Shown: positions 4,633-42,493, counted from the stretch's first letter. The stretch: DNA of 64,000 nucleotides from an uncultured Bacilli bacterium (GCA_934148535.1 CAKPDF010000003.1:29515-93514); one strand, 5' to 3'. Program-made: numbers and translations. Notes: generated from the sequence alone by a model not told the origin.

Positions 4633-6303
4633 TTATATATATTCAATCTTATCACTACCAATGATATCAATAATTTTATCAATATCGCTATCACTCTTAG
4701 ATAATGATTTATCTAATTCATCATCTTTTTCTTCTACATAAACATACTTATACCCTTTTTGAATATTTTCAATATATTTACTTTTTTCATATTTCCACTC
4801 ATCATTAGCAAGAAATACAACCCTATACTCCTTATTTAGAAGATTATAGATTAATTTTTCAATCGCTAATATATTGGTATATAATCTATCTAATAAAGTA
4901 TCATATTTAGCAAGTAACATTAAATTATTATCCCCTGCAACAATAATATCAACATCTTTTAACATTCCAGCTATAGCACCATATTCCGCATCTAACAACA
5001 AATTATCTAAATTTTTCCAAGATTTTTTTACTTCTAACAATCTTTCTTTAGAAGCACTAGAAAAAGTATTATTAATTCTAATTTGCCTTTTCTTTTCATC
5101 AAAAAAATTATTATTATCAACAATTTTTGTTAAATTAGAACTTACAATACAACTTGAATTATCAGTATCTTTTGTATCAGTAGCATTTTTTTTAACCTCT
5201 TTATTATTATCATTATTATCCTTTTTGACATCTACAGACAAATTTTCAGATATTTTAATCAAAGATACACCTAACAATACATATGGAACAGTTGATCCTT
5301 TAATATTAGTAAGTAAATCATTTAAATAAAGCATTAAATCATAAAACTTAGAAACACTATATAAATTAGAAATCTTTTCAATATTTTCATTTTCTATATT
5401 ATTATAAGTACCAGTAGTTTTAAAATAAATAACATCTCTAATATAATATAAAAATTCTTCCAAAAACTTAGAAACATTTTTACCAGTAGTATTAACATTT
5501 TCAGAAAATGAAATAATATTATCATATTCCTTATTAAATAAATAACTTACCAACTTATATAATTCTTCATAAGAATATGTACCACTCAACTTATAAATAT
5601 CATCTAAAACAATTTTTCCATTACCAAAAGAAGACAACTGATCCAACATATTTATAGCATCTCTCATTCCACCATCAGATAATCTTGCAATCTCAAATAA
5701 AGAATCATCATCTACATCAATATTTTCCAATTTAGCAATTGTTTTAAGCCTAGAAACAATTGCATCATTTGAAACTCTAGTAAATTGAAATTTCTGACAT
5801 CTAGAAACAACAGTAACAGGAATCTTAAAAAATTCAGTAGTTGCCAATATAAAAATAACATGACTAGGCGGTTCTTCTAATGTTTTTAATAAAGCATTAA
5901 ATGCTTGAGTAGTAAGCATATGTACTTCATCTATTATATAAACCTTATATTTGTTGCCAGAAGGAACTAAATTAACCTTATCCCTAAGCTCCCTAATTTC
6001 ATCCACTCCATTATTAGAAGCAGCATCAATTTCAACAATATCACTACTAGAATCAAAATTTTTACAAGATTCACAAACACCACAAGGCATACCATCAGAA
6101 CCTAAATTTTCACAATTAACCATTCTAGCCATTATTTTAGCAGTAGTTGTCTTCCCAGTACCCCTAGGGCCAGCAAATAAATATGCATGAGATACTTTAT
6201 TATTAAGAATTTCCCTCTTAATAACTTCAATCACCTCATTTTGATCAACCATATCTTCAAAATTATGTGGTCTATATTTTCGATATAAAGCCAAGTATGA
6301 CAT
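4633..6303 (-). CDS. dnaX: DNA polymerase III gamma/tau subunit
   Basis: Walker A GPRGTGKTT, a Zn module CGVCESC, IIDEVHML and SRCQ motifs. Confidence 0.95.
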   Translation of the reverse strand: MSYLALYRKYRPHNFEDMVDQNEVIEVIKREILNNKVSHAYLFAGPRGTGKTTTAKIMARMVNCENLGSDGMPCGVCESCKNFDSSSDIVEIDAASNNGVDEIRELRDKVNLVPSGNKYKVYIIDEVHMLTTQAFNALLKTLEEPPSHVIFILATTEFFKIPVTVVSRCQKFQFTRVSNDAIVSRLKTIAKLENIDVDDDSLFEIARLSDGGMRDAINMLDQLSSFGNGKIVLDDIYKLSGTYSYEELYKLVSYLFNKEYDNIISFSENVNTTGKNVSKFLEEFLYYIRDVIYFKTTGTYNNIENENIEKISNLYSVSKFYDLMLYLNDLLTNIKGSTVPYVLLGVSLIKISENLSVDVKKDNNDNNKEVKKNATDTKDTDNSSCIVSSNLTKIVDNNNFFDEKKRQIRINNTFSSASKERLLEVKKSWKNLDNLLLDAEYGAIAGMLKDVDIIVAGDNNLMLLAKYDTLLDRLYTNILAIEKLIYNLLNKEYRVVFLANDEWKYEKSKYIENIQKGYKYVYVEEKDDELDKSLSKSDSDIDKIIDIIGSDKIEYI

Positions 6304-6407
6304 ATTATCACCTCAAATTGCACACTAAATATTATAGCATAAAATTAAAATAAATGTATAATAATTTACTAAAAATTAAGCAAACAAACGTTTGCAATAT
6401 ATTTTCA

Positions 6408-6486
6408 AAAAAAGACGCACACAATAAGAGGTTGTTAAAGCTGCTATCTTCCAATCCTGACTTGGTTCCAACATTATTATTGCGTC
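6408..6486 (-). ncRNA. ffs: small (4.5S-type) signal recognition particle RNA
   Basis: The minus strand reads GACGCAAUAAUAAUGUUGGAACCAAGUCAGGAUUGGAAGAUAGCAGCUUUAACAACCUCUUAUUGUGUGCGUC followed by a U-run. It contains the conserved domain IV core ACCA-GUCAGG-nnn-GGAAG-nn-AGCAGC with a GGAA tetraloop. The closing stem is GACGCA/UGCGUC. It lies upstream of dnaX, as scr does in B. subtilis. Confidence 0.85.
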
Positions 6487-6492
6487 AATAAA

Positions 6493-6521
6493 ATAATACA
6501 ATAATAGTAAAAAAAAAGCAA
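6493..6521 (-). promoter_or_regulatory. sigmaA-type promoter of the SRP RNA
   Basis: Minus strand: TTGCTT (6516-6521), a 17-nt spacer, TATTAT (6493-6498), then 6 nt before the G at 6486. Confidence 0.45.
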
Positions 6522-6570
6522 GTAATTATTAATAAAAAATAAGTTTTTTTTAGTTTTTAAAAATTTAATT

Positions 6571-6639
6571 ATTTCCCAACATCAATTTTAATTTTTCGAT
6601 TATTTCCCAATAGTATTTTTAATTTTTTTAATATTTCCC
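6571..6639 (+). repeat. three phased ATTTCCC half-sites (Noc-site half) with 31-bp spacing
   Basis: ATTTCCC occurs at 6571, 6602 and 6633. Each sits inside the unit ATTATTTCCCAAnnnnATTTTTAA, and all are in the same orientation. Confidence 0.7.
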
Positions 6640-6673
6640 AAGGCAAATTTTTAAAATTCAAAAAAATATTTTA

Positions 6674-6689
6674 TGTTTCACGTGAAACA
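6674..6689. promoter_or_regulatory. parS site 1 (perfect TGTTTCACGTGAAACA)
   Basis: A 16-bp perfect palindrome identical to the Firmicute ParB/Spo0J consensus tGTTnCACGTGAAACa. Confidence 0.8.
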
Positions 6690-6815
6690 TCACTTTAACA
6701 TTCTCTAAATTAAATAAAAGAATAAAAAAATATATATATTTATAAGCAAAAAAATATGTAAAAATACAATTAAAATAAAATAACATATTAGAATATAGAA
6801 TACAACATTTTTTTT

Positions 6816-6831
6816 AGTTTCACGTGAAACA
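6816..6831. promoter_or_regulatory. parS site 2 (AGTTTCACGTGAAACA)
   Basis: 15/16 match to the palindromic consensus. The mismatch is at the outermost base. Confidence 0.7.
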
Positions 6832-6917
6832 TAACAAAAAATATAGATTAAAGCAAAAATAATTATAAAATATATTATATAAAAATATTAAACATAAAAT
6901 ATAACATAAAAGAACCA

Positions 6918-6933
6918 TGTTTCACGTGGAACT
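6918..6933. promoter_or_regulatory. parS site 3 (TGTTTCACGTGGAACT)
   Basis: Core GTTTCACGTGGAAC. The T/C alternation at the N position is as in B. subtilis parS. The outer base is mismatched. Confidence 0.65.
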
Positions 6934-7085
6934 TAGGGATAAATAATATCATTAAAATACAAAATTGCATGACAAAAAAGTTAAAAACAATTACTCTTAG
7001 CATCAAATAACTATGAAAATGTTTAGTAATAAGAAAAATGCAAATATTTTTTTTATTTTTGAAGCAAATACAAATATACAGAAAA

Positions 7086-7101
7086 CGTTCCACGTGAAAC
7101 A
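7086..7101. promoter_or_regulatory. parS site 4 (CGTTCCACGTGAAACA)
   Basis: Core GTTCCACGTGAAAC is identical to the B. subtilis spo0J-internal parS core. Confidence 0.7.
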
Positions 7102-7147
7102 TAAATTAATATTGAAATAACTATTAACTATAATATTAATAGATTTT

Positions 7148-7161
7148 ATTCTCTGAGAAAT
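7148..7161. promoter_or_regulatory. decayed NBS-like palindrome (ATTCTCTGAGAAAT)
   Basis: It aligns positionally with the NBS palindromes of the two younger repeat units, but it has 4 substitutions in the CCCGGG core. Confidence 0.35.
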
Positions 7162-7187
7162 AATAATTTTATTATAATTTTATAATT

Positions 7188-7224
7188 ATTTTCAAGCTAA
7201 TTTTTTCAAATTTAATTATTTTCC
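7188..7224 (+). repeat. two decayed half-sites (ATTTTCA 7188, ATTTTCC 7218)
   Basis: The flanks (..CAAGCTAATTTTTT.. and ..CGACAnTGATTTTAAA) are homologous to the half-site units at 7871 and 7902. Confidence 0.5.
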
Positions 7225-7329
7225 GACACTGATTTTAAATATTTAAATACTAAAAAAATAGAATTAGTCAAAAAAACTATATTTACTTTGAACTAAATAT
7301 ATATAATTTAAAAATAATAAAATATTAAA

Positions 7330-7345
7330 AGTTCCACGTGGAACA
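7330..7345. promoter_or_regulatory. parS site 5 (AGTTCCACGTGGAACA)
   Basis: The 14-bp perfect palindrome GTTCCACGTGGAAC fits the parS consensus. Confidence 0.7.
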
Positions 7346-7485
7346 TAACTACATAAAAATACATACTATTATAATAAATAATTAAAATATTAAATATTAT
7401 TTTTAGATTTAAAAAGTATAATAAAAAATATATTACTAAATTGAAAAATATAACTTAAATCAAGATAATTAATTTTAAATATTAA

Positions 7486-7494
7486 TTATCAACA
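7486..7494 (+). promoter_or_regulatory. DnaA-box-like TTATCAACA inside repeat unit 1
   Basis: This is the same 9-mer variant that dominates the oriC clusters flanking dnaA. Confidence 0.4.
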
Positions 7495-7512
7495 GATTTT
7501 TTAATCTATTTT

Positions 7513-7526
7513 ATTTCCCAGGAAAT
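7513..7526. promoter_or_regulatory. NBS-like palindrome ATTTCCCAGGAAAT (1 mismatch to the Noc site)
   Basis: 13/14 match to the B. subtilis Noc-binding sequence ATTTCCCGGGAAAT. Confidence 0.55.
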
Positions 7527-7547
7527 AATAATTTTGAATTTTAAATT

Positions 7548-7585
7548 ATTTCCCGAACTATTTTTTTAAAATTCGATTATTTCCC
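7548..7585 (+). repeat. two phased ATTTCCC half-sites (7548, 7579)
   Basis: Spacing is 31 bp. They share orientation and flanks with the other half-site units. Confidence 0.65.
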
Positions 7586-7653
7586 GACATTAATTTTTAA
7601 TATCTAATTAAATTAAATAAATATATATATTTTAAAAATAATGAAATGTTTAA

Positions 7654-7669
7654 TGTTTCACGTGAAACA
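7654..7669. promoter_or_regulatory. parS site 6 (perfect TGTTTCACGTGAAACA)
   Basis: A 16-bp perfect palindrome identical to site 1. Confidence 0.8.
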
Positions 7670-7808
7670 TACTACATAAAACATATAATATTTTAATAGA
7701 TAATTAAAATATTAAATATTTATTTTAGATTTAAAAAATATAATAAAAAATTATATTACTAAATTGAAAAATATAACTTAAATTAAAATAATTAATTTTA
7801 AATATTAA

Positions 7809-7817
7809 TTATCAACA
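7809..7817 (+). promoter_or_regulatory. DnaA-box-like TTATCAACA inside repeat unit 2
   Basis: Positional homologue of 7486-7494. Confidence 0.4.
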
Positions 7818-7835
7818 GATTTTTTAATCTACTTT

Positions 7836-7849
7836 ATTTCCCGGGAAAT
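7836..7849. promoter_or_regulatory. exact Noc-binding-site palindrome ATTTCCCGGGAAAT
   Basis: 14/14 identity to the published B. subtilis NBS consensus. The flanking T/A extends it to a 16-bp palindrome (7835-7850). Confidence 0.65.
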
Positions 7850-7870
7850 AGTAATTTTGAATTTTTGATT

Positions 7871-7940
7871 ATTTCCCAAGCTAATTTTTTAAAATTCGAT
7901 TATTTCCCGACATCAATTTTAAAAAATCAAATTATTTTCC
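7871..7940 (+). repeat. three phased half-sites (ATTTCCC 7871, 7902; decayed ATTTTCC 7934)
   Basis: Spacing is 31-32 bp, all in the same orientation. Confidence 0.65.
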
Positions 7941-7966
7941 AAACAAATTTTTAAAATAAAAATTAG

Positions 7967-8037
7967 TTATCAACAAAAATAATAACTAATTTAAAAATAA
8001 ATTTATTTATCTTTTATTTAAAAAAGAGTTTTCCACA
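7967..8037 (+). promoter_or_regulatory. two DnaA-box-like 9-mers (TTATCAACA 7967-7975, TTTTCCACA 8029-8037)
   Basis: These are the same box variants found in the oriC clusters. They lie just downstream of the gyrA stop. Confidence 0.35.
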
Positions 8038-8061
8038 GAAAAATAAGAAAAATAAAAAAGA

Positions 8062-10614
8062 CTATTCATTAGTCTCTTCTATTATATCAACCTTTGGTTC
8101 ATTATCACCAATATTTTTTAATTCCTCATCTTCGTTTTCTTCCTTATCAATAATGGCAGTAGAACTTACAATTTGATTTTCTCTAAGATTTATTAACCTA
8201 ACTCCCTGAGTAACTCTACTCATAGTAGAAATTTGATTAACATCTAAACGAATTATTACACCCTCATTAGTAATAATCATCAAATCTTTATCATTATCAA
8301 CAGTTTTAAATGAAACTATTGAACCATTCTTCTCTGTAATATTTATAGTTTTTACACCTTTTCCACCACGATTAGTAATTCTATATTCAGCTACAGGTGT
8401 CTTTTTACCATAACCATTCTCAGTTACTACTAAAACATCTTGTCCCTCTTCAACAACTTCCATACCAACTAAAGAACTTCCATCACTTAAATTAATACCT
8501 CTAACACCACTAGCACCTCTACCCATAACTCTAATAGCATCTTCATTAAATCTAACCATTCTGCCATTTGATGAAGCCATAAGTATTTCATTAGTACCAG
8601 TAGTCTTTTTAACAGATATCAACTCATCATCCTCTTTTAAAGTTAAAGCTTTTTTACCATTATTTCTAATACTATCAAACTCAGTAATCTCTGTTCTCTT
8701 TATTAATCCTTGTTTTGTAGCAAATACTAAGTACTTAAATTCATCATCATTTGAAGTTTTCAACAGAGAAGTAACTTTTTCATCTTTATCTAATTTAAGT
8801 AAGTTAACTATAGGTAATCCTTTTGATTGTCTAGCATATTCTGGAATTTCATATCCTTTTATTCTAAATACTCTTCCCTTACTAGTAAAGAATAAAATAT
8901 AATCATGACTCTTAGCATTTATTAAATGCTCCACAAAATCTTCCTCGTTAGTAGACATACCTTTAATTCCAACGCCACCACGATTTTGAATTCTATAAGT
9001 ATCACTAGGAACTCTCTTAATATATCCTTTATTAGTCAAAGTCAAAACCACATTTTCCACAGGAATTAAAGATTCATCCTCAATATAATCTACCGCAGTC
9101 ATATCAATATGTGTTCTTCTAGGATCTGCATATTTATCCTTGATTTCAAGCATTTCCTTTTTAATTATTCCGTAAATCTTTTCTTCACTACCCAAAATTT
9201 CTTCTAACTCTTTTACTAATTTCTCAAGTTCAGCGATTTCATCCTCAATCTTAGATTTTTCTAATCCAGTTAATCTCTTCAATCTCATTTCCAATATAGC
9301 CTGAGCCTGAACTTCACTAAGACCAAATTCATCAATTAAACCTTTTTTAGCAACATCATCATCAGCAGATTCCCTAATTATTTGAATTACTCTATCAATA
9401 TTATCCAAAGCAATTTTCAATCCATCTAAAATATGTAATCTATCTTTATATTGTTTCAAATCAAATTGACACCTACGATAAATAACATTTCTTTGATGTT
9501 CAACATATTTTTCTAATATTTTTCTCAAACTCATAGTACGAGGAGTACCATCAACAAGCATTAAAAAATTAATACCATAAGTAGTCTGCAATTGCGTATG
9601 CTTATATAAATTATTTAATACAACATTAGCATTAGCTTCTTTCTTAACATCAATAACAATTTTTATTCCCTCTAAAGCAGATTCATCATTTAAATTAGAA
9701 ATACCATCAATAACCTTATCTCTTACCAATTCACCAATTCTTGTAATTAATGCCTTTTTATTAACTTGATAAGGTATTTCAGTAATAATTATTCTATCCT
9801 TACCATGATGTTCTTCTATTTTTGCCATACCTCTAATAGTAATAGTTCCACGACCTGTTTCATAAGCCTTCTTAATACCACTATTACCTAAAATAACACC
9901 AGCTGTTGGAAAATCAGGTCCCTTAATATATTGCATTAACTCAGTAACAGAAATATCATTATTATCAATATAAGCAACACAACCATCAATAACTTCTCCT
10001 AAATTATGTGGTGGTATATTAGTAGCCATACCAACAGCAATTCCCATATTACCATTAACTAATATATTAGGAAATCTACTAGGTAAAACAGTAGGCTCTT
10101 TTCTCTGATTATCATAGTTAGCATCAAAATCAACAGTATCCTTCTTTATATCTCTCAATAATTCCATAGATATCTTAGCAAGCCTAGCTTCTGTATAACG
10201 AGAAGCAGCTGCCCCAAAACCATCTATAGAACCAAAATTACCATGACCATCAACTAAACAATGACGATAAGTAAAATCTTGTGCCATACGAACCATTGAA
10301 TCATATATAGCAGAATCACCATGTGGATGATAATGACCCATAACCGCTCCAACAGCATTAGCGCTTTTTTGATATTTTTTATCAGGTGTCATACCTTCTT
10401 CATATAAAGTATATAAAATTCTTCTATGAACAGGTTTAAGACCATCTCTAACATCAGGTAACGCACGAGCAACAATAACACTCATAGAATATTCTAGAAA
10501 AGATTGACGCATTTCACCAACAATATTAACTGCAACTCTTCTATCCTTCTCTGTACTATTATCTTCACCCATATTCTCTATTTCAATATCTTTATCAAAC
10601 TTATTTGTTTCCAT
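8062..10614 (-). CDS. gyrA: DNA gyrase subunit A
   Basis: [11 protein letters not shown], the HPHGD quinolone-resistance region and C-terminal beta-pinwheel repeats. Confidence 0.97.
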
Positions 10615-13761: not shown

Positions 13762-14229
13762 CTATACAGCCTTTTTTCTCTTATTAAATTCAAGTTTTAA
13801 CCTATTACATCTAATAATTTGATTGCTCAAAACAAATATACTTACATCAACTGAAACAATACTACCATTTTTAAACTTTATAGTACTTGTTCTACTATCA
13901 TTTTTTTCATGATATTCATAATTATTATAAGAAATCCAAATACAATTATTACAAATATTAGACGTAGTAGGAAAGAAAATTAATTGAGTAATTTCTTCAA
14001 TAATAATTGGCAATTTATAATTAGCATTTAATAAATCAACACTAAATTTCTTTCTCCCATCAAAAGTGCTTCCAAAAAACAAACAACTTCTTTTAATAAT
14101 ATCTGAAGATGACATATTTACCTCAAAACAATCTTCAAATTCATAAACAAAAGATCTATTTTTATCAATTGGAACAATACACAAAGTAGAAGCATTAATC
14201 TCATAACAATCCATAATATTTTCCCCCAT
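13762..14229 (-). CDS. comK: ComK-family competence transcription factor-like protein
   Basis: YEINASTLCIVP, IIKRSCLFFGSTFDGRK and LPIII...QLIFFPTTS...CIWIS parallel remembered B. subtilis ComK (IVDRSCRFFGSSYAGRK, PPIMV...IFLFPTLS...CGWIS). Confidence 0.7.
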   Translation of the reverse strand: MGENIMDCYEINASTLCIVPIDKNRSFVYEFEDCFEVNMSSSDIIKRSCLFFGSTFDGRKKFSVDLLNANYKLPIIIEEITQLIFFPTTSNICNNCIWISYNNYEYHEKNDSRTSTIKFKNGSIVSVDVSIFVLSNQIIRCNRLKLEFNKRKKAV

Positions 14230-15484: not shown

Positions 15485-15618
15485 TCTTTTATTATATATA
15501 TTATTGTTATTATTATACTGTGGATATTGTGGAAAACTGCCTCAATACCATATATTATATACGTTTTTATTTCCACAGCCATGTGGAAAACTTTCAATTT
15601 TATCAACAGTTATCAACT
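15485..15618. promoter_or_regulatory. oriC part 2 (dnaA-dnaN spacer): AT-rich unwinding stretch plus DnaA boxes
   Basis: An AT-only run spans 15485-15518. The boxes are TGTGGATAT 15519, TGTGGAAAA 15528, ATTTCCACA 15569, TGTGGAAAA 15582, TTATCAACA 15600 and TTATCAACT 15610. Confidence 0.8.
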
Positions 15619-15620
15619 TT

Positions 15621-17006
15621 TTAAGTGGATAATTGTTTTTTTAGGTCGTTAATAACTACTTTCAACTGTTCATTTTTTTCTAAATCTTTCTCAATTTTTT
15701 GATATGAACTAATAATTGTTGAGTGATCTCTACCTCCAAAATAAGTTCCTATCTTTGGAAAAGATTCATTAGTAAGTTGTCTGCATAAATATATAGCAAC
15801 TTGTCTAGGGTAATTGATATTTTGACTTCTCTTTTTCCCTTTTAAATCATCAATTGTTATTTTAAAGTAATCGCATACTACTGTCTGTATTCTATGAACA
15901 TCATTCTTATAGCCACCTTTATCAATTAATTGATCTTTTAAAGCATCTACTGCAGTATCTAAATCCACCTTCCCCCTATTCATCATAAGAGAATAAGCAA
16001 AAACTCTAGTAATAGCGCCTTCAAGTTTTCTAACATCGCTAGCAAAATTATTAGCTATATATTCAATAACCTCGTTTGGAACATCATTAGCAGATTCTTG
16101 ATGTGCAATTTTTTTTCTTATTATATTAACCCTAAGTTCAAAATCAGGAGGAGTTATATTAGCAGTAAGGCCCCAATTAAATCTAGTTAAAAGTCTATTT
16201 TCTAATGTTTTCAAGTCATCAACAGACCTGTCGGAAGCAATAACTATTTGCTTATTTTCATTATATAGTTCGTTAAAAGTATGAAAAAACTCTTCTTGTC
16301 CCTTAGTAGCATTCCCTAAAAATTGAATATCATCAATCATAAGTACATCAATATTTCTATACTTATTTTTAAATGTATCAATTTTGTCATAGTTATCTTT
16401 ATCGTTTCTAACAGCGTTAATAAAATCATTTACAAACTTATCACTAGATATATATAGAACTCTTAAATTAGAGTTTTTGATAATATAATTTCCAATGGAA
16501 TGCATTAAATGTGTTTTACCAAGTCCACTTTTACCATATAAAAATAAAGGATTATAAGCCTTACCAGGTTTTTCAGCAACAGCCATTGAAGTAGTATAAG
16601 CAAATTTATTAGAATCACCAACTATAAATGAATCAAAGGTGTACTCAGGATTTAAATTAGCCTCCAATGGTGATTGAGCTAAATTTTCCTTTTGATGTTC
16701 ATTTCTATCTTCTTCATCATAAGGTTCTTCAAATATATCCTCATTTTTTTCATCTTCCCATTCTTCTTCAACTACAAATTTAAAAGTAAAGTTAGAACCG
16801 TTCACTTCTTTTAAAGTATTCTCCATAATTTCTTGATAATTTTCCATTAAATGTTTTTTATGAAGTTCCATTGGGACAATAACAATAGCGCAATTATCAC
16901 GAATTGATACCAGTTTAGTATCCTGAAACCAAGTTTCATAAGACAATGCCGACACATATTCTTTAATTTTCTTGAGGAAATTGTTCCATAGCATATCTAA
17001 ATTCAT
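15621..17006 (-). CDS. dnaA: chromosomal replication initiator DnaA
   Basis: Walker A GKSGLGKTHL, IDDIQFL, and the C-terminal DNA-binding domain (IAMYL-like VAIYLCRQLT, GGRDHSTI). Confidence 0.97.
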   Translation of the reverse strand: MNLDMLWNNFLKKIKEYVSALSYETWFQDTKLVSIRDNCAIVIVPMELHKKHLMENYQEIMENTLKEVNGSNFTFKFVVEEEWEDEKNEDIFEEPYDEEDRNEHQKENLAQSPLEANLNPEYTFDSFIVGDSNKFAYTTSMAVAEKPGKAYNPLFLYGKSGLGKTHLMHSIGNYIIKNSNLRVLYISSDKFVNDFINAVRNDKDNYDKIDTFKNKYRNIDVLMIDDIQFLGNATKGQEEFFHTFNELYNENKQIVIASDRSVDDLKTLENRLLTRFNWGLTANITPPDFELRVNIIRKKIAHQESANDVPNEVIEYIANNFASDVRKLEGAITRVFAYSLMMNRGKVDLDTAVDALKDQLIDKGGYKNDVHRIQTVVCDYFKITIDDLKGKKRSQNINYPRQVAIYLCRQLTNESFPKIGTYFGGRDHSTIISSYQKIEKDLEKNEQLKVVINDLKKQLST

Positions 17007-17095
17007 TATCTACTCCTCCCAACGTCTTAATTTCATTTTAACACAATAAAAAAAAAAGTCTACAAATTTCATTACAGAGTAACAAAAACTTTTTC

Positions 17096-17299
17096 TGTGG
17101 AAAACTATTGTTGGAAATACAAAAAATTGCAATTTATCAACAGAGTTATCAACAAATACATACATATAAAAATCCCTTATATTATAAGGGATTAAAATAC
17201 TTATCAACAAAATTCAACAGAAAAGTTATAAACAGCCCTGTGGAAAACTCGAAAATTGTGGATAAAAAAACTGTGGAAATCTGTGGAAAGTGTGGAAAA
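17096..17299. promoter_or_regulatory. oriC part 1: DnaA-box cluster upstream of dnaA
   Basis: At least 11 boxes are present. They are TGTGGAAAA 17096, TTATCAACA 17134/17146/17201, TGTGGAAAA 17239, perfect TGTGGATAA 17257, TGTGGAAAT 17272, TGTGGAAAG 17282 and TGTGGAAAA 17291. An inverted repeat ATCCCTTATATTATAAGGGAT lies at 17172-17192. Confidence 0.85.
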
Positions 17300-17328
17300 A
17301 AAGACCAAAGCATTATAAACTTTGGTCT
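17295..17328 (-). terminator. rho-independent terminator of the HerA-like gene
   Basis: On the minus strand, AGACCAAAG / CTTTGGTCT forms a 9-bp stem followed by a T-run, directly after the stop at 17336. Confidence 0.65.
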
Positions 17329-17335
17329 TAGCATT

Positions 17336-19090
17336 CTAACTTTTCCACTCCACCATCCACTTGTTATACACAGATGCATTTGAACTCTGTGGTTCTGGGT
17401 TAGGTAATTCCATTTTTACAATCATTGGTATCTTCATCATTCTACCAAAAGCAACACAAGTACCAGATTGTAATGATTTTTGTTTTTCAATAACATCAGC
17501 ACTGATATTAGGAACCATCTTTCTAATATATTCCAAATCAGTAGGATGTGTAATTTTAAATATTAAAAAGTTACTACACTGAGATATAACCGATTCTGAT
17601 AATTCAGTAGGTCTTTGAGTAATTAAATCTAATACTACTCCAAACTTACGCCCCTCTTTAGCAATTCTTTCAAATATATTATATCCCAAAATATTAATAT
17701 CGTTATCTCTTTGAACATATCTATGAGCTTCTTCTAACATAAGATGAATAGGCATAGCACCTCTTTCTTGAAGTCCTTTACTAAATTTAAATATTAATCT
17801 ACAATATACCTTAACAATAGCTTTAGCAAACCTATCATCAATATCCTCAAGAACAAAATTAATTATTTGAGCTCTCTTTGTTTGGCCAACCATAACTATA
17901 TCTGTGATAAATTCAGAAATAGAAATAAATCTACCATAATCAAAATATTTCTTATTAGAACTATTATTTAAAGAATGTAATTTTACTTTTAAAGCAGTAG
18001 CCTCACTATAAGATTTTTCATTTAATAAAAGTCCCTCTGAAATTAAAGCAAAATTTAAAGCAACTTCCAAATCATCTAAAGTAAAATATATAGGAACATA
18101 GTCTTCATTCCATTTAGTATTGTTATCAACGAACTGTTGAATATATCCAGTAATTAAAATTCTTTCTACAAACTCTCCCTTACTATCTATATCAAAACAT
18201 TTTCTAAATTGTCTAGTATAACCAACACCAGGAACATCAACATCTAAGTTTAATTCTGGACTATTACAATTAGTAAGTATAGAAAATATCTGATCTCTTA
18301 TTCTAGAAGGAGTTTGGTTAGTATATAATACAGATATAATAGCAGAAGCAATTAGATGATTTTTATATTTAGCGGATTCCTCATCTTTTCTAGCAAATAC
18401 TGAAACTAAACTAAGCATTTTTTCAATAATAGATAATTGGGTATATTCAGTAGCATCTAATAAATTAGCATAATCATCAACTGATAATAGCCATAATGGT
18501 AATTTTATTATCTCACTATTTCCCTCACCACTTGTTGAATACATCTTGTAATTAAAATTAGGATTATATTGATTAATACTCTTGAAAGCATTATCATATT
18601 CATTTGTATTGTTAAAAATAAATATATTACTGTTAAAAGGAATTTTTCCTTTCATAACAAATAAATTTTGAACTAATCTTGCAACACCATAGGTTTTACC
18701 ACTACCAGTATTACCAAATATTGCACTATGATTACTCCACATATCATCAATATTAATTTTAATAGGAAAATTATTATAAAGAGGAGATAAACCTAACATC
18801 ATAGATTTATCGTCATTAGCACCTGTTAATTCTGATAATTCATCTTCGTTGATAAGTCTAATTTTAGTATTTAAACTAGGTTTTCTAATAATACCTCCAA
18901 AAAATTTTCCTTCATGAAACTCTCCAAGAAAACTAATTTTTACCTCATCCCCATCGATTTCCTCAATTTCACCTAATATTTTTTTATTATCTTCAAAAAT
19001 AACATTCATATTAAGTAAATCATCTGTAGTAGTATTTTCAATTTTAACCATTGCAAAATTCTTACTAACCGCGGTTATTTCTTTAAACAT
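17336..19090 (-). CDS. HerA/DUF87-like (FtsK-HerA superfamily) P-loop ATPase
   Basis: Walker A GNTGSGKTYG and Walker B-like IHLMLEEAHRY. The C-terminal ITQRPTELSESVISQCSNFLIFKITHPTDLEYI is typical of HerA/DUF87. The N-terminal region resembles a small beta-barrel (HAS-like). Confidence 0.65.
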   Translation of the reverse strand: MFKEITAVSKNFAMVKIENTTTDDLLNMNVIFEDNKKILGEIEEIDGDEVKISFLGEFHEGKFFGGIIRKPSLNTKIRLINEDELSELTGANDDKSMMLGLSPLYNNFPIKINIDDMWSNHSAIFGNTGSGKTYGVARLVQNLFVMKGKIPFNSNIFIFNNTNEYDNAFKSINQYNPNFNYKMYSTSGEGNSEIIKLPLWLLSVDDYANLLDATEYTQLSIIEKMLSLVSVFARKDEESAKYKNHLIASAIISVLYTNQTPSRIRDQIFSILTNCNSPELNLDVDVPGVGYTRQFRKCFDIDSKGEFVERILITGYIQQFVDNNTKWNEDYVPIYFTLDDLEVALNFALISEGLLLNEKSYSEATALKVKLHSLNNSSNKKYFDYGRFISISEFITDIVMVGQTKRAQIINFVLEDIDDRFAKAIVKVYCRLIFKFSKGLQERGAMPIHLMLEEAHRYVQRDNDINILGYNIFERIAKEGRKFGVVLDLITQRPTELSESVISQCSNFLIFKITHPTDLEYIRKMVPNISADVIEKQKSLQSGTCVAFGRMMKIPMIVKMELPNPEPQSSNASVYNKWMVEWKS

Positions 19091-27592: not shown

Positions 27593-29308
27593 ATGCAAGA
27601 GAATAATGAAATTAAGTATATTGATCTTGTTGATATTATTCCAAATAGACTACAACCTCGAACAGAATTTGATGAAGAAAAACTTAATGAATTAGCAACT
27701 TCTATCAAGCAATATGGAATAATAAATCCATTATTAGTGCGCAAAGTTGGAAATAAGTATGAAATTATAGCAGGTGAAAGAAGATTTAAAGCTGCTAAAA
27801 TAGTAGGACTAGAAAGAGTACCAGTAATTATTTCTAATATGGATGAAAAGACAAGTGCTGAAGTAGCAGTAATAGAAAATATTCAAAGGCAAGATTTATC
27901 TGCTCTAGAAGAGGCAAGGTCATATCGCAAATTATTAGATCAAGGTAATATTACTCAAGAGCAATTAGCAACCAAAATGGGAAAGAGTCAATCTACTATC
28001 GCTAATAAAATGCGTTTGTTAAACCTATGTGATGAAGTTCAAGAAGCATTAGATAATAATCAAATATCAGAAAGACATGCTAGAAGTTTGTTACAACTAA
28101 AAAATATAGATGATCAAAGAAATGCTTTAGAGAAAATAATAAAAGAAAGATTAACTGTAAAAGCAACAGAAAATCTTATAAAAGAAATATTGCAATCAAA
28201 AACCCTTAACTCTCAAGAAAATATGCAACAAAATAAAACATCTTTACCAGGTAAAGAAGAAAATTTTACTGATACAATATATGGTAGTGATGTAGTAAAT
28301 ATTGCAGATTTAAATAAAAAAGAATTAGAAAAGGAAAATGATAATATGAATAACGAACAAAATACACAAATGAATAATAATATGCCTAATCCAGGAATAG
28401 TCAACCAGCAACCTAACGAACAAGTACAACAACCTGCTTTTGGTGGAAGATTCTTCCCATCATTAGAAGATAGTGAAGTAAATGTAAATTTAGCAAATCC
28501 ATTTGCACAACAACAACCAGCTCAAGCTCAACCAATGATGGCAAATTTAGTTGATACACCACAACAAACTCCAGTAGCCCCAACAATTCCATCATTCGTA
28601 ACAGACAGCACAACTGTTCCAAGTAGTAATACAGTATCTCTAGATAGTTTAAATAAAGAACCAGTTATGCCTACTATTAACCCATTACAACAAAATTTTG
28701 AAAGTCCAATATCAGAACCTGTTAATAATATAGTAGCAGAACCAATTATTAACCCAATTGCTTCTTCTGCACCAACACCAGGACCAATTCCAGAAAGCCA
28801 ACCAAATCCATTATTTGGAAATAATGTTCCAGAACCACAACCAGAGCCAACTACCCCAACAATTCCAAATTTACCAAATGTGGAAAGTAATTCTTTTGGA
28901 CAAATGACACCTAATATGGAAACACCAGTACAACCTACAATACCAACTCCAGAACCAATTATTCCAGAGCCTGCTGTTGCACCACAACCTATAATGGAAC
29001 CATCAGCACCACAACCTATAGTAGAACCAACCTCACCAATAACTCCTGATCCAGTTATACCAGATATTCAAATGCCACAAAATAACTTTACAGTGCCATC
29101 TCCAGAAGTTCCTACGCCAGAACCAGCTCCAATAGTTGAAAAAACACCAGAAGTAGCACCAACAATAAAAACTACTGATAATATTATAAATGCAATAAAT
29201 GCTATAAAAAATTTAGGATTAAGTATAGAGTCAATTGGATATAAAATAAATATCAGCGAAGAAGATACCCCTACTTCTTATAAAATAACAATTGAATTAG
29301 AAAAGTAA
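27593..29308 (+). CDS. noc: Noc/ParB-family CTP-switch DNA-binding protein with a long Pro/Gln-rich insertion
   Basis: IPNRLQPR box and GERRFKAAK (the GERRxRA CTP motif). HTH GKSQSTIANKMRLLNL...ISERHARSLL resembles remembered Noc, not Spo0J. Residues ~200-520 are low-complexity P/Q/N/E. The C-terminal ...YKITIELEK resembles the Noc C-terminus. The ATG at 27593 follows a GAGAGGGA RBS (the track start is TTG 27578). Confidence 0.8.
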   Translation: MQENNEIKYIDLVDIIPNRLQPRTEFDEEKLNELATSIKQYGIINPLLVRKVGNKYEIIAGERRFKAAKIVGLERVPVIISNMDEKTSAEVAVIENIQRQDLSALEEARSYRKLLDQGNITQEQLATKMGKSQSTIANKMRLLNLCDEVQEALDNNQISERHARSLLQLKNIDDQRNALEKIIKERLTVKATENLIKEILQSKTLNSQENMQQNKTSLPGKEENFTDTIYGSDVVNIADLNKKELEKENDNMNNEQNTQMNNNMPNPGIVNQQPNEQVQQPAFGGRFFPSLEDSEVNVNLANPFAQQQPAQAQPMMANLVDTPQQTPVAPTIPSFVTDSTTVPSSNTVSLDSLNKEPVMPTINPLQQNFESPISEPVNNIVAEPIINPIASSAPTPGPIPESQPNPLFGNNVPEPQPEPTTPTIPNLPNVESNSFGQMTPNMETPVQPTIPTPEPIIPEPAVAPQPIMEPSAPQPIVEPTSPITPDPVIPDIQMPQNNFTVPSPEVPTPEPAPIVEKTPEVAPTIKTTDNIINAINAIKNLGLSIESIGYKINISEEDTPTSYKITIELEK

Positions 29309-29331: not shown

Positions 29332-29368
29332 AAACGATAAAAGACCAAAAATCTAATATCGTTTTTTT
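29332..29368. terminator. bidirectional hairpin between convergent noc-like and PBP genes
   Basis: AAACGATA...TATCGTTT with a large loop, flanked by an A-run and a T-run. Confidence 0.4.
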
Positions 29369-31376
29369 AATTACCATCTTCATTCGAAGAATTATCATCT
29401 GTAATAACTTCACTACTATTCTCTTCTTTAAAAACAGACTCAAAATTATAAGAATCATTATAACCAGGCTCAGTTCCCTTTAAATAGTAAAAAATTTTCT
29501 TCTTCTCACTATCATCAGTAGCAATCTCTCCATTAATAGGATTAACTAAAACCCCAACAACATTATCAGGAATATCATACCAACTATTATCCTTATCCTT
29601 ACAATATTCTTCCATAGTATCTATCCAAATATCCTTATGAATACCACTATCACTCTTACTTAATTTTCTATTATCATCATACCCACTCCAAATAGATAAA
29701 ACAGCATTTTTATTATATCCCATAATCCACATATCACAATCTGTAGTCCCAGTTTTAATTGCATATTTATTAGTAATTTTAGGAAGAAGCCCAATTACCG
29801 TAGGATAATTATAATCAATAAAGTCTTTATCATAAGTATAAGTAAGCATTTCACTAAGTATATAAGTTAAACTCTGATTAAGTACCATATTCTTTTCATT
29901 TTTAAACTCATATAAAACATTATCATCCTTATCACAAACCTTTGTAATAAAATGACTCTTAACCTCATAACCACTATTAGCAAAAGTAGAATACGCAGAA
30001 ACCATCTCCAACATACCAATTTCCCCAGTACCAAGTGCTAAAGAAGGAACAGCATCAAGCTTACTAGATATCCCCAATCTATTAGCCATATTCACAAGAC
30101 CATCTTCTCCCAAAAATATATCAGTTTTAACAGCATAAATATTATCTGAATATGATATAGCGGCTCCCATAGTAATAGGTCCATTAGCATAATTATTATT
30201 ATAGTTATTAGGCGTATAAGTCTTATTAGAAGAAAAATTAAAAGTAGTTCTCTCACTAGTAAAAGTAGAAGAAGAAGTAAAACCATTCTCCAAAGCATAA
30301 TAATATAATATTGGCTTCATAATAGAACCAACCTGTCTTTTAGACTTCACAGCCCTATTATATTGACTCTTAGAATAATCAAATCCCCCAATTAAAGCCA
30401 TTACTCCCCCATCATTAGGATTCATCATTATTCCAGAAACCTGCAACTCACTATCACTATTTTCTTTGCTCTTAACAGCACTCTCTAAATCCTTCTGTGC
30501 TTCACTATCCAAAGTAGTATATACCTTTAACTCTCCAGTATCAATCATAGATTTAGGAATAGAATCTATTGAATATAATTCCTCTACCACTGCATCCCTA
30601 AAATATAAAATATTCTGTAATTCACCTTCTTTAATCTTTCCAATATAACTTAAAGTAGTATTATAAGCCTCATTAACATCATTCTCTGTTATTTTTTTAT
30701 TATTTTTCATAGCAATAAGAACAACTTTCTGCCTTTTTTTAGCAAGACTTTCATTTACTAAAGGAGAATAATTAGAAGGTGATTGTGGAATACCTGCTAG
30801 CATAGAAGCCTCAGCAAGATTAAGATCCTTAGCACTCTTCCCAAAATAATACCAACTAGCATTCCCTATTCCATATATACCTCCATAATTTATAGTATTT
30901 AAATATCCCTCCAATATCTCTTCCTTAGAATAATGTGTCTCTATCTCAGCAGCCAGAATAGCCTCATCAAATTTTCTAGACCAAGTCTTATCATAATTTA
31001 AAAATAAATTTCTAGCATATTGTTGCGTAATAGTAGAAGCACCCTCATTCAAACTACCACTCTTAATATTATTAACCATAGCCTTCAGTATTCTAAAATA
31101 GTCAAATCCCAAATGTTTATAAAAATTCTTATCCTCAACACTTATAGTAGCGTCTATTAAATATTTACTAATATCATCAAGCTTAGCCCAATCATCCTTA
31201 CTATCTATAAGTATCTGCCCCTTATTATCATATAAATAATAAGATTTATTCTTAGCTAAAGATATTCTAGGAGTAATATAACAATATAAATAAAGTCCAA
31301 CATGAAATAAAATAAAAACTCCAATAAATATCAAAACTATATTTCTAAAAACCTTTAATTTCTTCATAAATTTCAC
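29367..31376 (-). CDS. class A penicillin-binding protein (GT51 transglycosylase + transpeptidase)
   Basis: N-terminal TM, GT51 motifs SVEDKNFYKHLGFD and GASTITQQ, and transpeptidase motifs (SIMKP as SxxK, KTGT). Confidence 0.9.
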   Translation of the reverse strand: MKFMKKLKVFRNIVLIFIGVFILFHVGLYLYCYITPRISLAKNKSYYLYDNKGQILIDSKDDWAKLDDISKYLIDATISVEDKNFYKHLGFDYFRILKAMVNNIKSGSLNEGASTITQQYARNLFLNYDKTWSRKFDEAILAAEIETHYSKEEILEGYLNTINYGGIYGIGNASWYYFGKSAKDLNLAEASMLAGIPQSPSNYSPLVNESLAKKRQKVVLIAMKNNKKITENDVNEAYNTTLSYIGKIKEGELQNILYFRDAVVEELYSIDSIPKSMIDTGELKVYTTLDSEAQKDLESAVKSKENSDSELQVSGIMMNPNDGGVMALIGGFDYSKSQYNRAVKSKRQVGSIMKPILYYYALENGFTSSSTFTSERTTFNFSSNKTYTPNNYNNNYANGPITMGAAISYSDNIYAVKTDIFLGEDGLVNMANRLGISSKLDAVPSLALGTGEIGMLEMVSAYSTFANSGYEVKSHFITKVCDKDDNVLYEFKNEKNMVLNQSLTYILSEMLTYTYDKDFIDYNYPTVIGLLPKITNKYAIKTGTTDCDMWIMGYNKNAVLSIWSGYDDNRKLSKSDSGIHKDIWIDTMEEYCKDKDNSWYDIPDNVVGVLVNPINGEIATDDSEKKKIFYYLKGTEPGYNDSYNFESVFKEENSSEVITDDNSSNEDGN

Positions 31377-40500: not shown

Positions 40501-40901
40501 ATAATTGCTTAGATAGAAAGAGTATGTAAAATAAGTGAATTTTATGAAATGTTTATCATTTCCTATATTCTCTAAATATTATAAATTAATTATTTATTTA
40601 ATATTTTAAATAAAATTAATTAATATAAATAATCATTTAGTTTATATAGTTATTATAAAATATTATTTATTTCATATTAGTTCTTATGGAAGAAAAATCA
40701 TTAGAGATGATTCTTATCTCCACTAAGTAAAGCAATTGTTTTAAGAAAGAAAAACTTATAAGATAAGAAAATTGAACTAGATACTGATAATATCTAAATA
40801 ATTTAATCAATTTTTACTCATCAAGTTATTATATCCAAACGATAATATATTTAAATAATATATTATGATTAGGGTTTGATATAATGACTTGTAATATAAA
40901 G

Positions 40902-41026: not shown

Positions 41027-42493
41027 TTATAAAACTATTGCAATCATGTTATTAGAGCCTTTATTAATTACCTTAGTTAAAGTTTGACCAAGTTTATATC
41101 TGATATTATCAGGCATCATAGATAATTTAGCTTGTATTCCCTCTTGAACAATAACATCTAAACTTCTACCAAATATTTCACTCTTCCAAATATCATTATT
41201 ATCATCCTTAGTAAGATAATCGATAAGTTCCTTGCTCTGAAGTTCACTACCAATAATAGGTTCAAAAGTAGATTCAACTTCGACTTTAATCATATGTATA
41301 GAAGGAGCTTTAGCTTTCAATTTAACACCATACCTAGAACCTTGTTTAATTATCTCTGGCGTTTCTAACTTCATATCTGCTAAAGTAGGAGTAGCAATAC
41401 CATATCCAGTCTGTTTAACCATTTTCAAAGCACCCTTAATTTGATCATATTCCTGTTTTGTTTCATTAAACTCTTGGAATAACGCTAACATTTTAGCACG
41501 TGATCCAATATCTGTCCCAATTACTTCATTAAGAATCTGATTATATAACCCATTAGGAGCTTCTAATTGAATAGTAACCTCACCCAAAGATGCATCAACA
41601 TTTGATATGTATGCCTTAGAAATAACTTCACAATTTCTAAATCCTTCCGTAATACTATCTATATCCTTTAATTTATTAACCTCTACTACACTCTCTTTAA
41701 TCTTACTAATATATTCTTTTTTCAAATAATGATTAGGACTTAAAATAGTAATCCATTCAGGCATATTAACTTTAACCTCTTCGATAGGAAATTCATATAA
41801 AGCTTCCTTTAAAATTCCATACATATCTCTTTCTTGCATATTTTCAACACTAATAGGAATAACAGGAACCCCATACTTTTCTTTTAAATTAGAAGCCAAC
41901 TTTTCAGTTTCAGGAAGCATAGGATGAACAGAATTTAAAATAACAATAAAAGGTTTATTAATACTCTTTAATTCTTCAATTACACTTTCCTCAGCACTGA
42001 CATAATCAGATCTATCAAATTCTCCAATAGAACCATCAGTAGTCATCACAATTCCTATAGTAGAATGATCACGAATAACCTTTTCAGTACCAATTTCCGC
42101 AGCTTCAACAAAAGGAATAGCCTCTGAAAACCATGGAGTCATAACTAATCTAGGACCATTTTCATCTTCATATCCTTTAGCAGAATCTATAACATACCCA
42201 ACACAATCAATCATCCTTATATTAGCGCTAAAATCATCTATTTGAATTTTAGCAGCAGTAGCAGGAATAAATTTAGGCTCAGTAGTCATAATAGTCTTAC
42301 CACCAGCAGATTGAGGAAGTTCATCTAATGCCCTTTTTCTTTCAGATTCATCACTTATATTTGGGATAACTAAACTCTCCATAAATTTCTTAATAAAAGT
42401 ACTCTTACCACATCTCACAGCGCCTACTACCCCTAAATATATATCACCACCACATCTAGAAGCAATACTCTTCATAACGTCTATTTTTTCCAT
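41027..42493 (-). CDS. spoIVA: stage IV sporulation protein A (spore coat basement-layer ATPase)
   Basis: IYLGVVGAVRCGKSTFIKKFME Walker A, plus full-length similarity to the remembered SpoIVA pattern (LPQSAGGKTIMTTEPKF). Confidence 0.93.
   Translation of the reverse strand: MEKIDVMKSIASRCGGDIYLGVVGAVRCGKSTFIKKFMESLVIPNISDESERKRALDELPQSAGGKTIMTTEPKFIPATAAKIQIDDFSANIRMIDCVGYVIDSAKGYEDENGPRLVMTPWFSEAIPFVEAAEIGTEKVIRDHSTIGIVMTTDGSIGEFDRSDYVSAEESVIEELKSINKPFIVILNSVHPMLPETEKLASNLKEKYGVPVIPISVENMQERDMYGILKEALYEFPIEEVKVNMPEWITILSPNHYLKKEYISKIKESVVEVNKLKDIDSITEGFRNCEVISKAYISNVDASLGEVTIQLEAPNGLYNQILNEVIGTDIGSRAKMLALFQEFNETKQEYDQIKGALKMVKQTGYGIATPTLADMKLETPEIIKQGSRYGVKLKAKAPSIHMIKVEVESTFEPIIGSELQSKELIDYLTKDDNNDIWKSEIFGRSLDVIVQEGIQAKLSMMPDNIRYKLGQTLTKVINKGSNNMIAIVL

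Follow-up and report, generated by a model that had tools for sequence, protein, structure and literature searches.

A parS array with recurrent Noc-binding sites between gyrA and dnaX, a probable chromosomal centromere of uncultured gut Bacilli

Close to the replication origin of an uncultured member of the Bacillota (~25% GC), gyrA and the signal recognition particle (SRP) RNA gene are separated by a 1.56-kb spacer in which parS sites, the palindromes of the ParB/Spo0J system, are packed together with Noc-binding sites (NBS). We analyzed this spacer within a stretch of 64,000 nucleotides from an uncultured Bacilli bacterium (GCA_934148535.1 CAKPDF010000003.1:29515-93514), referred to here as the window, and in the genomes of its relatives. 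An earlier reading of the window, made from its sequence alone (the sequence-only reading), had proposed that the block is a gene-free platform shared by, or contested between, ParB-type and Noc-type clamps. We found a real, clade-wide composite of the two site types that is a variation on the known parS and Noc-NBS systems, and we assign a probability of roughly 0.7 to the reading that this clade has its chromosomal centromere in the gyrA-SRP RNA-dnaX spacer, in the form of a parS array with NBS on which two predicted protein clamps would be loaded. The two motifs and their protein families are textbook knowledge, whereas no published description of the arrangement was found.

Site arrays in the gyrA-dnaX interval

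Searching the window with the parS word TGTTTCACGTGAAACA and allowing up to three mismatches returned six matches in 64 kb, all of them at 6674-7669, where shuffled sequence gave an expectation of 0.15 and none of 100 shuffles reached six. All six are 16-bp palindromes that fit tGTTNCACGTGAAACa and lie where the sequence-only reading had placed them, those at 6674 and 7654 being perfect; in the other four (6816, 6918, 7086 and 7330) the deviations are confined to the outer bases and the tolerated T/C position. The NBS word ATTTCCCGGGAAAT, a 14-bp palindrome, occurs twice in the window with at most one mismatch (exact at 7836, one mismatch at 7513, both as claimed), against 0.01 in shuffles; at three mismatches the NBS count in the window shows no excess over chance. 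The decayed NBS that had also been proposed was located in a third copy of the repeat module described below, but with four mismatches it counts as a site solely through its place in that module. At least eight half-sites had been claimed as well, and indeed TTATTTCCC has eight exact copies in the window, all in the spacer, and ATTATTTCCC has six, likewise confined to the spacer and to its plus strand (0.40 in shuffles). The half-sites are arranged as arrays of 31-bp period. Outside the spacer, no parS (up to two mismatches), NBS (up to one mismatch) or half-site was found in 117 kb of the oriC-region contig of the species, so that neither the shuffles nor the species' own sequence shows a comparable site density elsewhere. 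The spacer is identical base for base in two more assemblies from other samples, which rules out an assembly artefact.

Much of the block is built from a tandem unit of 323 bp (Table 1), which reads parS, ~150 bp of spacer, TTATCAACA with a short hairpin, NBS and then two or three half-site repeats of 31 bp; a third, decayed copy of this module lies upstream of the 1.9 recognizable copies. The half-site repeats may be weak landing sites, or else palindromes that have decayed and travel with the tandem duplications. As had been stated, the interval between the SRP RNA gene and gyrA holds no credible open reading frame (ORF). Only unconserved ORFs of up to 75 residues are present, gene calls on the two other assemblies are likewise empty, and the weak tblastn matches of small ORFs that might have pointed to hidden genes turned out to be the translated parS palindrome ('MFHVKH'). 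A hidden RNA was rejected as well, since an Rfam search of the spacer returned no family besides the SRP RNA even at E<=1, and so was a promoter array, since sigma-70-like promoter sites numbered 22 against 23.3 expected, with no enrichment.

The spacer was then compared across 80 species-level genomes that share 63-99% GyrA identity with the window, with spacer counts based on the 77 genomes that have at least 150 bp after gyrA (loci are denoted by handles of the form L001). The gene order dnaA-dnaN-comK-recF-gyrB-gyrA-[array/SRP]-dnaX-recR is kept in all relatives, and the parS array is kept at exactly this locus: the gyrA-dnaX interval contains at least one parS core in 74/77 genomes and at least two in 70/77. 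Summed over the 77 genomes, 317 parS sites fall in 83 kb of spacer and none in 1.29 Mb of flanking sequence. The spacer is also enriched ~8-fold over the flanks in exact NBS 14-mers, with 46 in 83 kb versus 85 in 1.29 Mb (131 exact copies in the relatives altogether). The arrays comprise 2-14 parS sites and may precede or follow the SRP RNA gene, and their tandem units vary among lineages both in filler and in length (40, 63, 69, 148, 275 and 323 bp). Some units carry parS only, such as the 14 units of 40 bp in L041, and repeats of 40-41 bp with one ParB-type palindrome each are present in L052 and L057. Others are composite units in which parS and NBS have been amplified together, of 63 bp in L077, ~69 bp in L080, ~148 bp in L070, ~275 bp in L014 and 323 bp in the window, and in the amplified composite units of several unrelated lineages the two sites are 22-45 bp apart. 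The proposed interleaving of NBS with parS is thus borne out in its strictest form in several lineages, as co-amplification within one repeat unit. Since the locus is fixed while unit length and filler are specific to lineages, the array is maintained in place yet turns over rapidly. It is also a recurrent assembly breakpoint right after gyrA, with 27 of the 80 loci ending between gyrA and dnaX. One relative is built differently: the spacer of L017 holds seven NBS (two of them with one mismatch) and then eight parS in two separate blocks with no interleaving, and a long (ATT)n microsatellite lies within the NBS part (L017:11600-11680).

In the relatives NBS are not confined to the block. Those near the origin recur at a small set of spots, namely within the array, in dnaX 2-3 kb past it, where recF meets gyrB, and past oriC, and they peak in the array and in the adjoining part of dnaX. 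The dnaX copies are exact sites, one to three per gene, in the low-complexity linker at codons ~340-395 (for example L034:14610, L002:15104, L027:5326-5422 and L015:8835-9054); the window's own dnaX has no exact NBS. Because these copies are read in two frames, as ISREI 21 times and as YFPGN 13 times, selection at the dnaX sites acts on the DNA word and not on the peptide.

Across 1.44 Mb, the sites that share the common core separate into two discrete classes, with 328 pure parS, 132 pure NBS and nine other off-types, and no palindrome combining a parS half with an NBS half was found among the ~460 sites. The clade consensus extends to 18 bp for parS (ATGTTYCACGTGRAACAT) and to 24 bp for NBS (AAATTATTTCCCGGGAAATAATTT), and the one-sided repeats of the window, (A/G)ATTATTTCCC(G/A), fit the extended left half of AAATTATTTCCCGGGAAATAATTT. 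A dual-specificity dimer would tolerate mixed sites, and their absence therefore implies, as far as sites can predict their proteins, two different homodimers and hence two separate readers. The palindromes themselves are invariant and show no compensatory changes, whereas their number, spacing and flanks vary. This pattern, which had been named as a check on the block, follows the palindromes and is the opposite of RNA covariation.

We also carried out a scan for the pattern alone, parS followed by NBS within 8-38 nt, in 241 million metagenome records. The tight pair was found in at least 120 metagenome stretches. Among the matches listed, 77 of 80 loci are flanked by gyrA, dnaX or the SRP RNA gene, and the remaining three are contigs of less than 2 kb. 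The same pattern had no match in 2.9 million viral contigs. From these flanks and the lack of viral matches we conclude that the tight pairing is essentially specific to the gyrA-dnaX locus of this clade. A mobile or plasmid origin is ruled out by the same absence of viral matches together with the fixed chromosomal flanks.

A Noc-type protein with a short N-terminus

The sole ParB-family protein of the window, encoded at 27593-29308, had been put forward as the ParB to be tried on these sites. Its specificity residues point to another assignment. ParB carries RTAG and Noc QKKR at the four specificity positions, R173 is invariant among parS binders, and the two NBS-specific bases are read by Q173 and R201 given K179 or K184 (PMC7383237). 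The window protein has Q, K, N and R at these positions, and QK[NSGA]R, the NBS-type pattern, is present in 120/120 of its closest homologues. The best relatives of solved structure are Noc proteins (7NFU, 2e-58; 7OL9, 6e-50), ahead of Spo0J (6SDK, 8e-49), and the GERR and ENxQR motifs for binding cytidine triphosphate (CTP) are both present. The gene follows mnmE, mnmG, rsmG and a gene for a 275-residue membrane protein, an order kept in the relatives that places it close to rsmG; in B. subtilis, noc lies directly after gidB (rsmG). Taken together, the QKNR residues, the Noc proteins as closest relatives, the rsmG neighborhood and the CTP-binding motifs indicate a Noc-type, predicted NBS-specific CTP-switch protein rather than a ParB-type one, which should read NBS and not parS.

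B. subtilis Noc carries a 10-residue N-terminal amphipathic helix that targets it to the membrane, and both its loading and its spreading start strictly at NBS and not at parS (PMC8429893). In the window protein the N-terminus is short. Residue 5 aligns to residue 28 of B. subtilis Noc, and 16 residues precede the motif PNRLQPR, as do 15-19 residues before PNRFQPR in 115/120 homologues, compared with ~40 residues in B. subtilis Noc and 48 in the canonical ParB of the L081/L087 lineage. With an N-terminus of this length, the Noc-type protein lacks both the helix that targets Noc to the membrane and the peptide with which ParB stimulates ParA. To call its targets Noc sites in the nucleoid-occlusion sense is therefore not justified.

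The protein of this species is further distinguished by a P/Q-rich linker of ~330 residues (28200-29180, plus strand) that is unique to this species' copy and is probably disordered, giving a length of 571-576 residues versus 290-350 in the 120 homologues. The species with the long P/Q-rich linker is also the species with the one-sided NBS half-site arrays.

Two predicted clamps and the alternatives

In the model that we favor, a canonical ParB encoded outside the window would nucleate on the parS units, bind CTP and close into clamps that slide over the origin region ~8 kb away and recruit SMC, and the Noc-type protein, encoded 20 kb from the array, would load likewise from the NBS units. Two paralogous CTP clamps would then load at neighboring sites, 22-45 bp from each other, within a few hundred bp. 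Since the sites are so close, site-bound dimers of one kind would stand directly in the path of the clamps of the other kind, and the two systems would have to meet. With no membrane helix, classical nucleoid occlusion by membrane tethering is unlikely for the Noc-type protein, which may instead be a second clamp associated with the centromere. In such a role it might delimit, insulate or reinforce the ParB domain, serve as a mark of the origin region, or influence initiation at oriC; S. aureus Noc acts on replication initiation (PMC5540599). Of the shared or contested platform proposed in the sequence-only reading, the conserved centromere-like parS array, the interleaved NBS and a Noc-type reader are in place, but no ParB-type reader was found in the window or in 117 kb around oriC, and a platform for two clamps can be stated as a prediction.

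Several observations weigh against the centromere model with two clamps. The interleaving is frequent but not universal, both site types lying inside the spacer in 28/77 genomes and parS arrays without NBS inside the spacer in 49/77. Residue 184 of the window protein is N and not K, and the specificity residues come from work on a Caulobacter ParB as scaffold and may not hold exactly for other proteins (PMC7383237). The reading frame of the Noc-type gene can be extended by just five codons upstream, which leaves no membrane-targeting helix. The most direct objection concerns ParB. A tblastn search with ParB and Noc domains found no canonical ParB or ParA in the window, with the Noc-type gene as the sole match. 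Neither was present in 117 kb around oriC (contig positions 5994-122989 of 126 kb), and tblastn found none beside the array in any of 160 loci, searched with up to 10 kb of flanking sequence. Firmicute parAB genes normally lie near oriC. Homologue searches gave the same picture: the Noc-type N-terminus retrieved QKxR proteins only, the canonical ParB of L081 retrieved only its own lineage at 85-100% identity, and 150 canonical ParBs among representatives at 50% identity included none tied to the clade, the named ones belonging to Haploplasma and Spiroplasma. The surroundings of parAB in two other low-GC Bacilli contain no parS or NBS. Because mixed palindromes do not occur, we nevertheless infer a separate canonical ParB, encoded outside the searched region. 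One gut Bacillus of low GC, with a Noc-type protein that ranks among the closest homologues of the window protein (65% identity), encodes a canonical ParA-ParB pair (RTNG) together with a Noc-type protein (QKSR), and in the L081/L087 lineage parA-parB (L081:196-1858, L087:9217-10879) adjoin rpmH and not the Noc-type gene, with no parS or NBS within 10 kb of them.

The most serious rival, which we consider unlikely, is that the spacer is the sole sizeable permissive non-coding stretch near oriC, so that parS and NBS accumulated there independently and their adjacency has no function. The 49 genomes without spacer NBS and the 14 parS-only units of L041 fit this explanation, as do the NBS of dnaX and of the recF/gyrB junction, which lie outside the spacer, and an array that comes before or after the SRP RNA gene like a freely evolving repeat. 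Independent accumulation would not, however, account for composite units with sites 22-45 bp apart that arose by independent amplifications, each with a filler of its own, in at least five lineages, nor for the tight pair in at least 120 metagenome stretches or the ~8-fold higher density of NBS in the spacer. A different possibility is that the canonical ParB has been lost and that one protein, either the Noc-type protein or some non-ParB protein, reads both parS and NBS. The lack of ParB and ParA in 117 kb around oriC and of the helix that defines Noc function both speak for such a single reader, and dual-specificity variants do exist, making up 82/362 strong NBS binders in a mutational scan (PMC7383237). 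In the same scan, however, Q173 is incompatible with parS binding and dual binders mostly have T or S at position 201, not R (PMC7383237); moreover 0 of ~460 sites are mixed, and a related lineage encodes both proteins. We therefore regard a single reader as improbable. The corresponding bolder proposal, to which we give a small chance, is that there is no canonical ParB at all, with a re-specified, helix-less Noc-type protein as the only ParB-family clamp and the composite array as its centromere, or with parS read by a non-ParB protein. If this were true, nature would have provided an example of a ParB paralogue that changed its specificity and took over the role of the centromere protein or came to share it, and a living intermediate of ParB-to-Noc neofunctionalization in which specificity switched before, or without, the membrane helix.

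Two further explanations were weighed. The block might be a DnaA-box cluster for DnaA titration or auxiliary replication control, like the DnaA-box clusters (DBCs) of B. subtilis or datA of E. coli. It does contain four DnaA-box-like 9-mers with one mismatch each at 7486-8037, and the spacers of relatives have 1.78 boxes/kb versus 1.03/kb in the flanks. But no box is perfect, two of the four are copies made by the 323-bp duplication, the 1.7-fold excess is expected from an AT-rich spacer for TTATCAACA, and the true oriC clusters are far denser, with 13 boxes in two stretches of ~100-280 bp. The 9-mers of the spacer are thus probably weak and incidental, and titration is a very improbable function. 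The palindromes could also be RNA or transcription signals: they might fold as hairpins in a non-coding RNA, or terminate or attenuate transcription between gyrA and the SRP RNA gene. The flanking genes of the spacer are all co-oriented, so the spacer may be transcribed, and one parS scores as terminator-like. This idea is hard to reconcile with the lack of any further Rfam match and of promoter enrichment, with invariant palindromes that show no compensatory changes while number, spacing and flanks are free, or with an NBS 14-mer kept inside dnaX in two frames, and we consider it scarcely credible.

Known systems and locus setting

The Firmicute parS/ParB(Spo0J)/SMC systems of B. subtilis and S. 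pneumoniae share with the array the 16-bp palindrome, the origin-proximal position and the multiple copies. In B. subtilis parS sites are dispersed over hundreds of kb and lie mostly inside genes, whereas here all sites are in one intergenic tandem array of 0.3-2.5 kb at the fixed gyrA-dnaX locus, with no parAB operon near it. To the Noc-NBS systems of B. subtilis and S. aureus (PMC8429893, PMC5540599, PMC7383237) the likeness lies in the 14-bp NBS core, Q173/K179/R201, the rsmG position and the GERR/ENxQR motifs. Here, by contrast, the N-terminal amphipathic helix is absent, N, S, G or A takes the place of K at residue 184, the consensus is 24 bp, and in this species NBS are found within 117 kb solely inside the putative centromere. 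In the Noc-NBS systems they are scattered through the origin-proximal chromosome and are missing near the terminus.

The centromere sopC of the F plasmid comprises 12 repeats of 43 bp with one SopB-binding inverted repeat each. Such plasmid centromeres resemble the array in their head-to-tail repeats with one ParB-type palindrome each (the 323-bp unit x1.9 in the window; 40-, 63-, 69- and 148-bp units in relatives) and in the rapid turnover of copy number. They differ in that the array is chromosomal, at a fixed clade-wide locus, and in that its units may carry sites for two paralogues; no adjacent parA-parB on a plasmid or phage was found, with gyrA/dnaX flanks at all genome loci and 0 viral matches. 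By analogy, the tandem packing at a single locus appears closer to F sopC, which is named in PMC7333895, than to any described Firmicute chromosome. Clustered chromosomal parS elsewhere, such as the ten parS in 35 kb of C. glutamicum (PMC7083940) or the 20-23 parS sites of Streptomyces and Listeria (PMC7333895), are alike in having several consensus parS in one origin-proximal, mostly intergenic cluster. Compared with clusters of the C. glutamicum type, the array is 10-100x denser, with sites 40-300 bp apart, tandem repeats and a second site type. A looser analogy is that of RacA, a DNA-binding protein of a spore-forming lineage that has a second palindrome set dedicated to it near the origin, the ram sites; the motif and the protein family are unrelated to those described here. 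In B. subtilis the ram sites are spread over ~600 kb.

As the sequence-only reading had supposed, a full-text literature search found no published account of the arrangement, that is of gyrA-dnaX parS arrays, parS/NBS composite units or helix-less Noc-type proteins. In model organisms parS and NBS are treated as separate, dispersed site sets that are read in a highly mutually exclusive way, whereas an order-level group of uncultured gut Bacilli packs all parS of the origin region into one tandem array with recurrent co-amplification of NBS. The arrays are a natural substrate for the question of why and how parS sites cluster, which is open according to PMC7333895, and for the question of whether adjacent paralogous CTP clamps block, insulate or help each other. 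They also bear on the order in which Noc gained its DNA specificity and its membrane helix, as the proteins here have the first without the second. On the practical side, the array breaks many metagenome assemblies after gyrA, and a compact pair of orthogonal loading sites has potential for DNA labelling.

The coordinates of the features are collected in Table 1. On the minus strand, the genes run dnaA, dnaN, a comK-family gene, recF, gyrB, gyrA, the 1.56-kb spacer, the SRP RNA gene, dnaX and then recR; on the plus strand they run yidC, jag, mnmE, mnmG, rsmG, the membrane protein gene and the ParB-family gene. The origin was placed around dnaA from the DnaA-box clusters and the GC-skew minimum (~18-20 kb). 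The distance from block to oriC is 7.6-10 kb, in agreement with the ~8-10 kb from dnaA given earlier, and the nearest DnaA-box cluster (15519-15632) lies ~7.6 kb away, an origin-proximal position as in parS centromeres.

Table 1. Coordinates of the spacer elements and of the surrounding genes, counted from the first letter of the window.
Feature	Position	Strand	Remarks
parS 1	6674..6689		perfect TGTTTCACGTGAAACA
parS 2	6816..6831		AGTTTCACGTGAAACA, outer base differs
parS 3	6918..6933		TGTTTCACGTGGAACT; A/G position variable across the clade
parS 4	7086..7101		CGTTCCACGTGAAACA
parS 5	7330..7345		AGTTCCACGTGGAACA; first parS of the 323-bp tandem unit
parS 6	7654..7669		perfect; second copy of the 323-bp unit
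NBS	7836..7849		exact ATTTCCCGGGAAAT
NBS, one mismatch	7513..7526		ATTTCCCAGGAAAT
Decayed NBS	7148..7161		4 mismatches; third, degenerate module copy
323-bp tandem duplication	7294..7920		1.9 copies, 90% identical
Three 31-bp repeats	6554..6653	+	each with one NBS half-site (A)TTATTTCCC; precede the first parS
Single 31-bp repeat unit	7201..7238	+	degenerate half-site ATTATTTTCC
Two 31-bp repeats	7537..7600	+	NBS half-sites ATTATTTCCCG; directly after NBS 7513
Three 31/32-bp repeats	7854..7954	+	NBS half-sites; directly after NBS 7836
Four DnaA-box-like 9-mers	7486..8037 (7486, 7809, 7967, 8029)	+	one mismatch each
SRP RNA gene	6399..6496	-	sole conserved gene within the gyrA-dnaX interval
dnaX	4633..6303	-	downstream boundary of the array; in-frame NBS copies in relatives
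gyrA	8062..10614	-	upstream boundary of the array
dnaA	15621-17006	-
oriC	15519..17372		DnaA-box clusters 15519-15632 and 17096-17372 on both sides of dnaA
Noc-type ParB-family protein, predicted NBS reader	27593..29308	+	QKNR; no N-terminal helix; ~330-residue P/Q-rich linker

Some neighboring genes deserve a brief description. The ComK-family gene (13762-14229, minus strand; Pfam ComK, 1.7e-35) lies between dnaN and recF, a position that yaaA occupies in B. subtilis, and a ComK-family gene is found at the matching position in every related locus (L001-L080) that covers the region. A HerA/DUF87-type ATPase that matches FtsK/SpoIIIE weakly (17336-19090, minus strand) adjoins the upstream DnaA-box cluster, on the side of oriC where rpmH and rnpA lie.

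The public records of the clade are labelled 'Tenericutes', 'Mycoplasma sp. CAG' or 'Bacilli bacterium', and the labels of close relatives are inconsistent. Contigs of the clade are also deposited under Oribacterium, Paludibacteraceae, Muribaculaceae and Clostridium bins (L001, L007, L014-L016, L022 and others), names that are probably the result of mis-binning. The window encodes SpoIVA (41027-42493, minus strand) and a class A penicillin-binding protein (PBP1A; 29367-31376, minus strand), which is consistent with walled, possibly sporulating members despite the Tenericutes and Mycoplasma labels; uncultured Bacilli orders that are walled and partly sporulating are discussed in PMC10868615. 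An Rfam PGK RNA motif (RF03040, 67.6 bits) lies at 40706-40797 on the plus strand, with no obvious plus-strand gene of at least 120 residues downstream. Finally, two EssC-type FtsK/SpoIIIE ATPases and small WXG100-like genes are encoded 1-20 kb past the right end of the window (L089, L213 and L214), which indicates type VII secretion loci.

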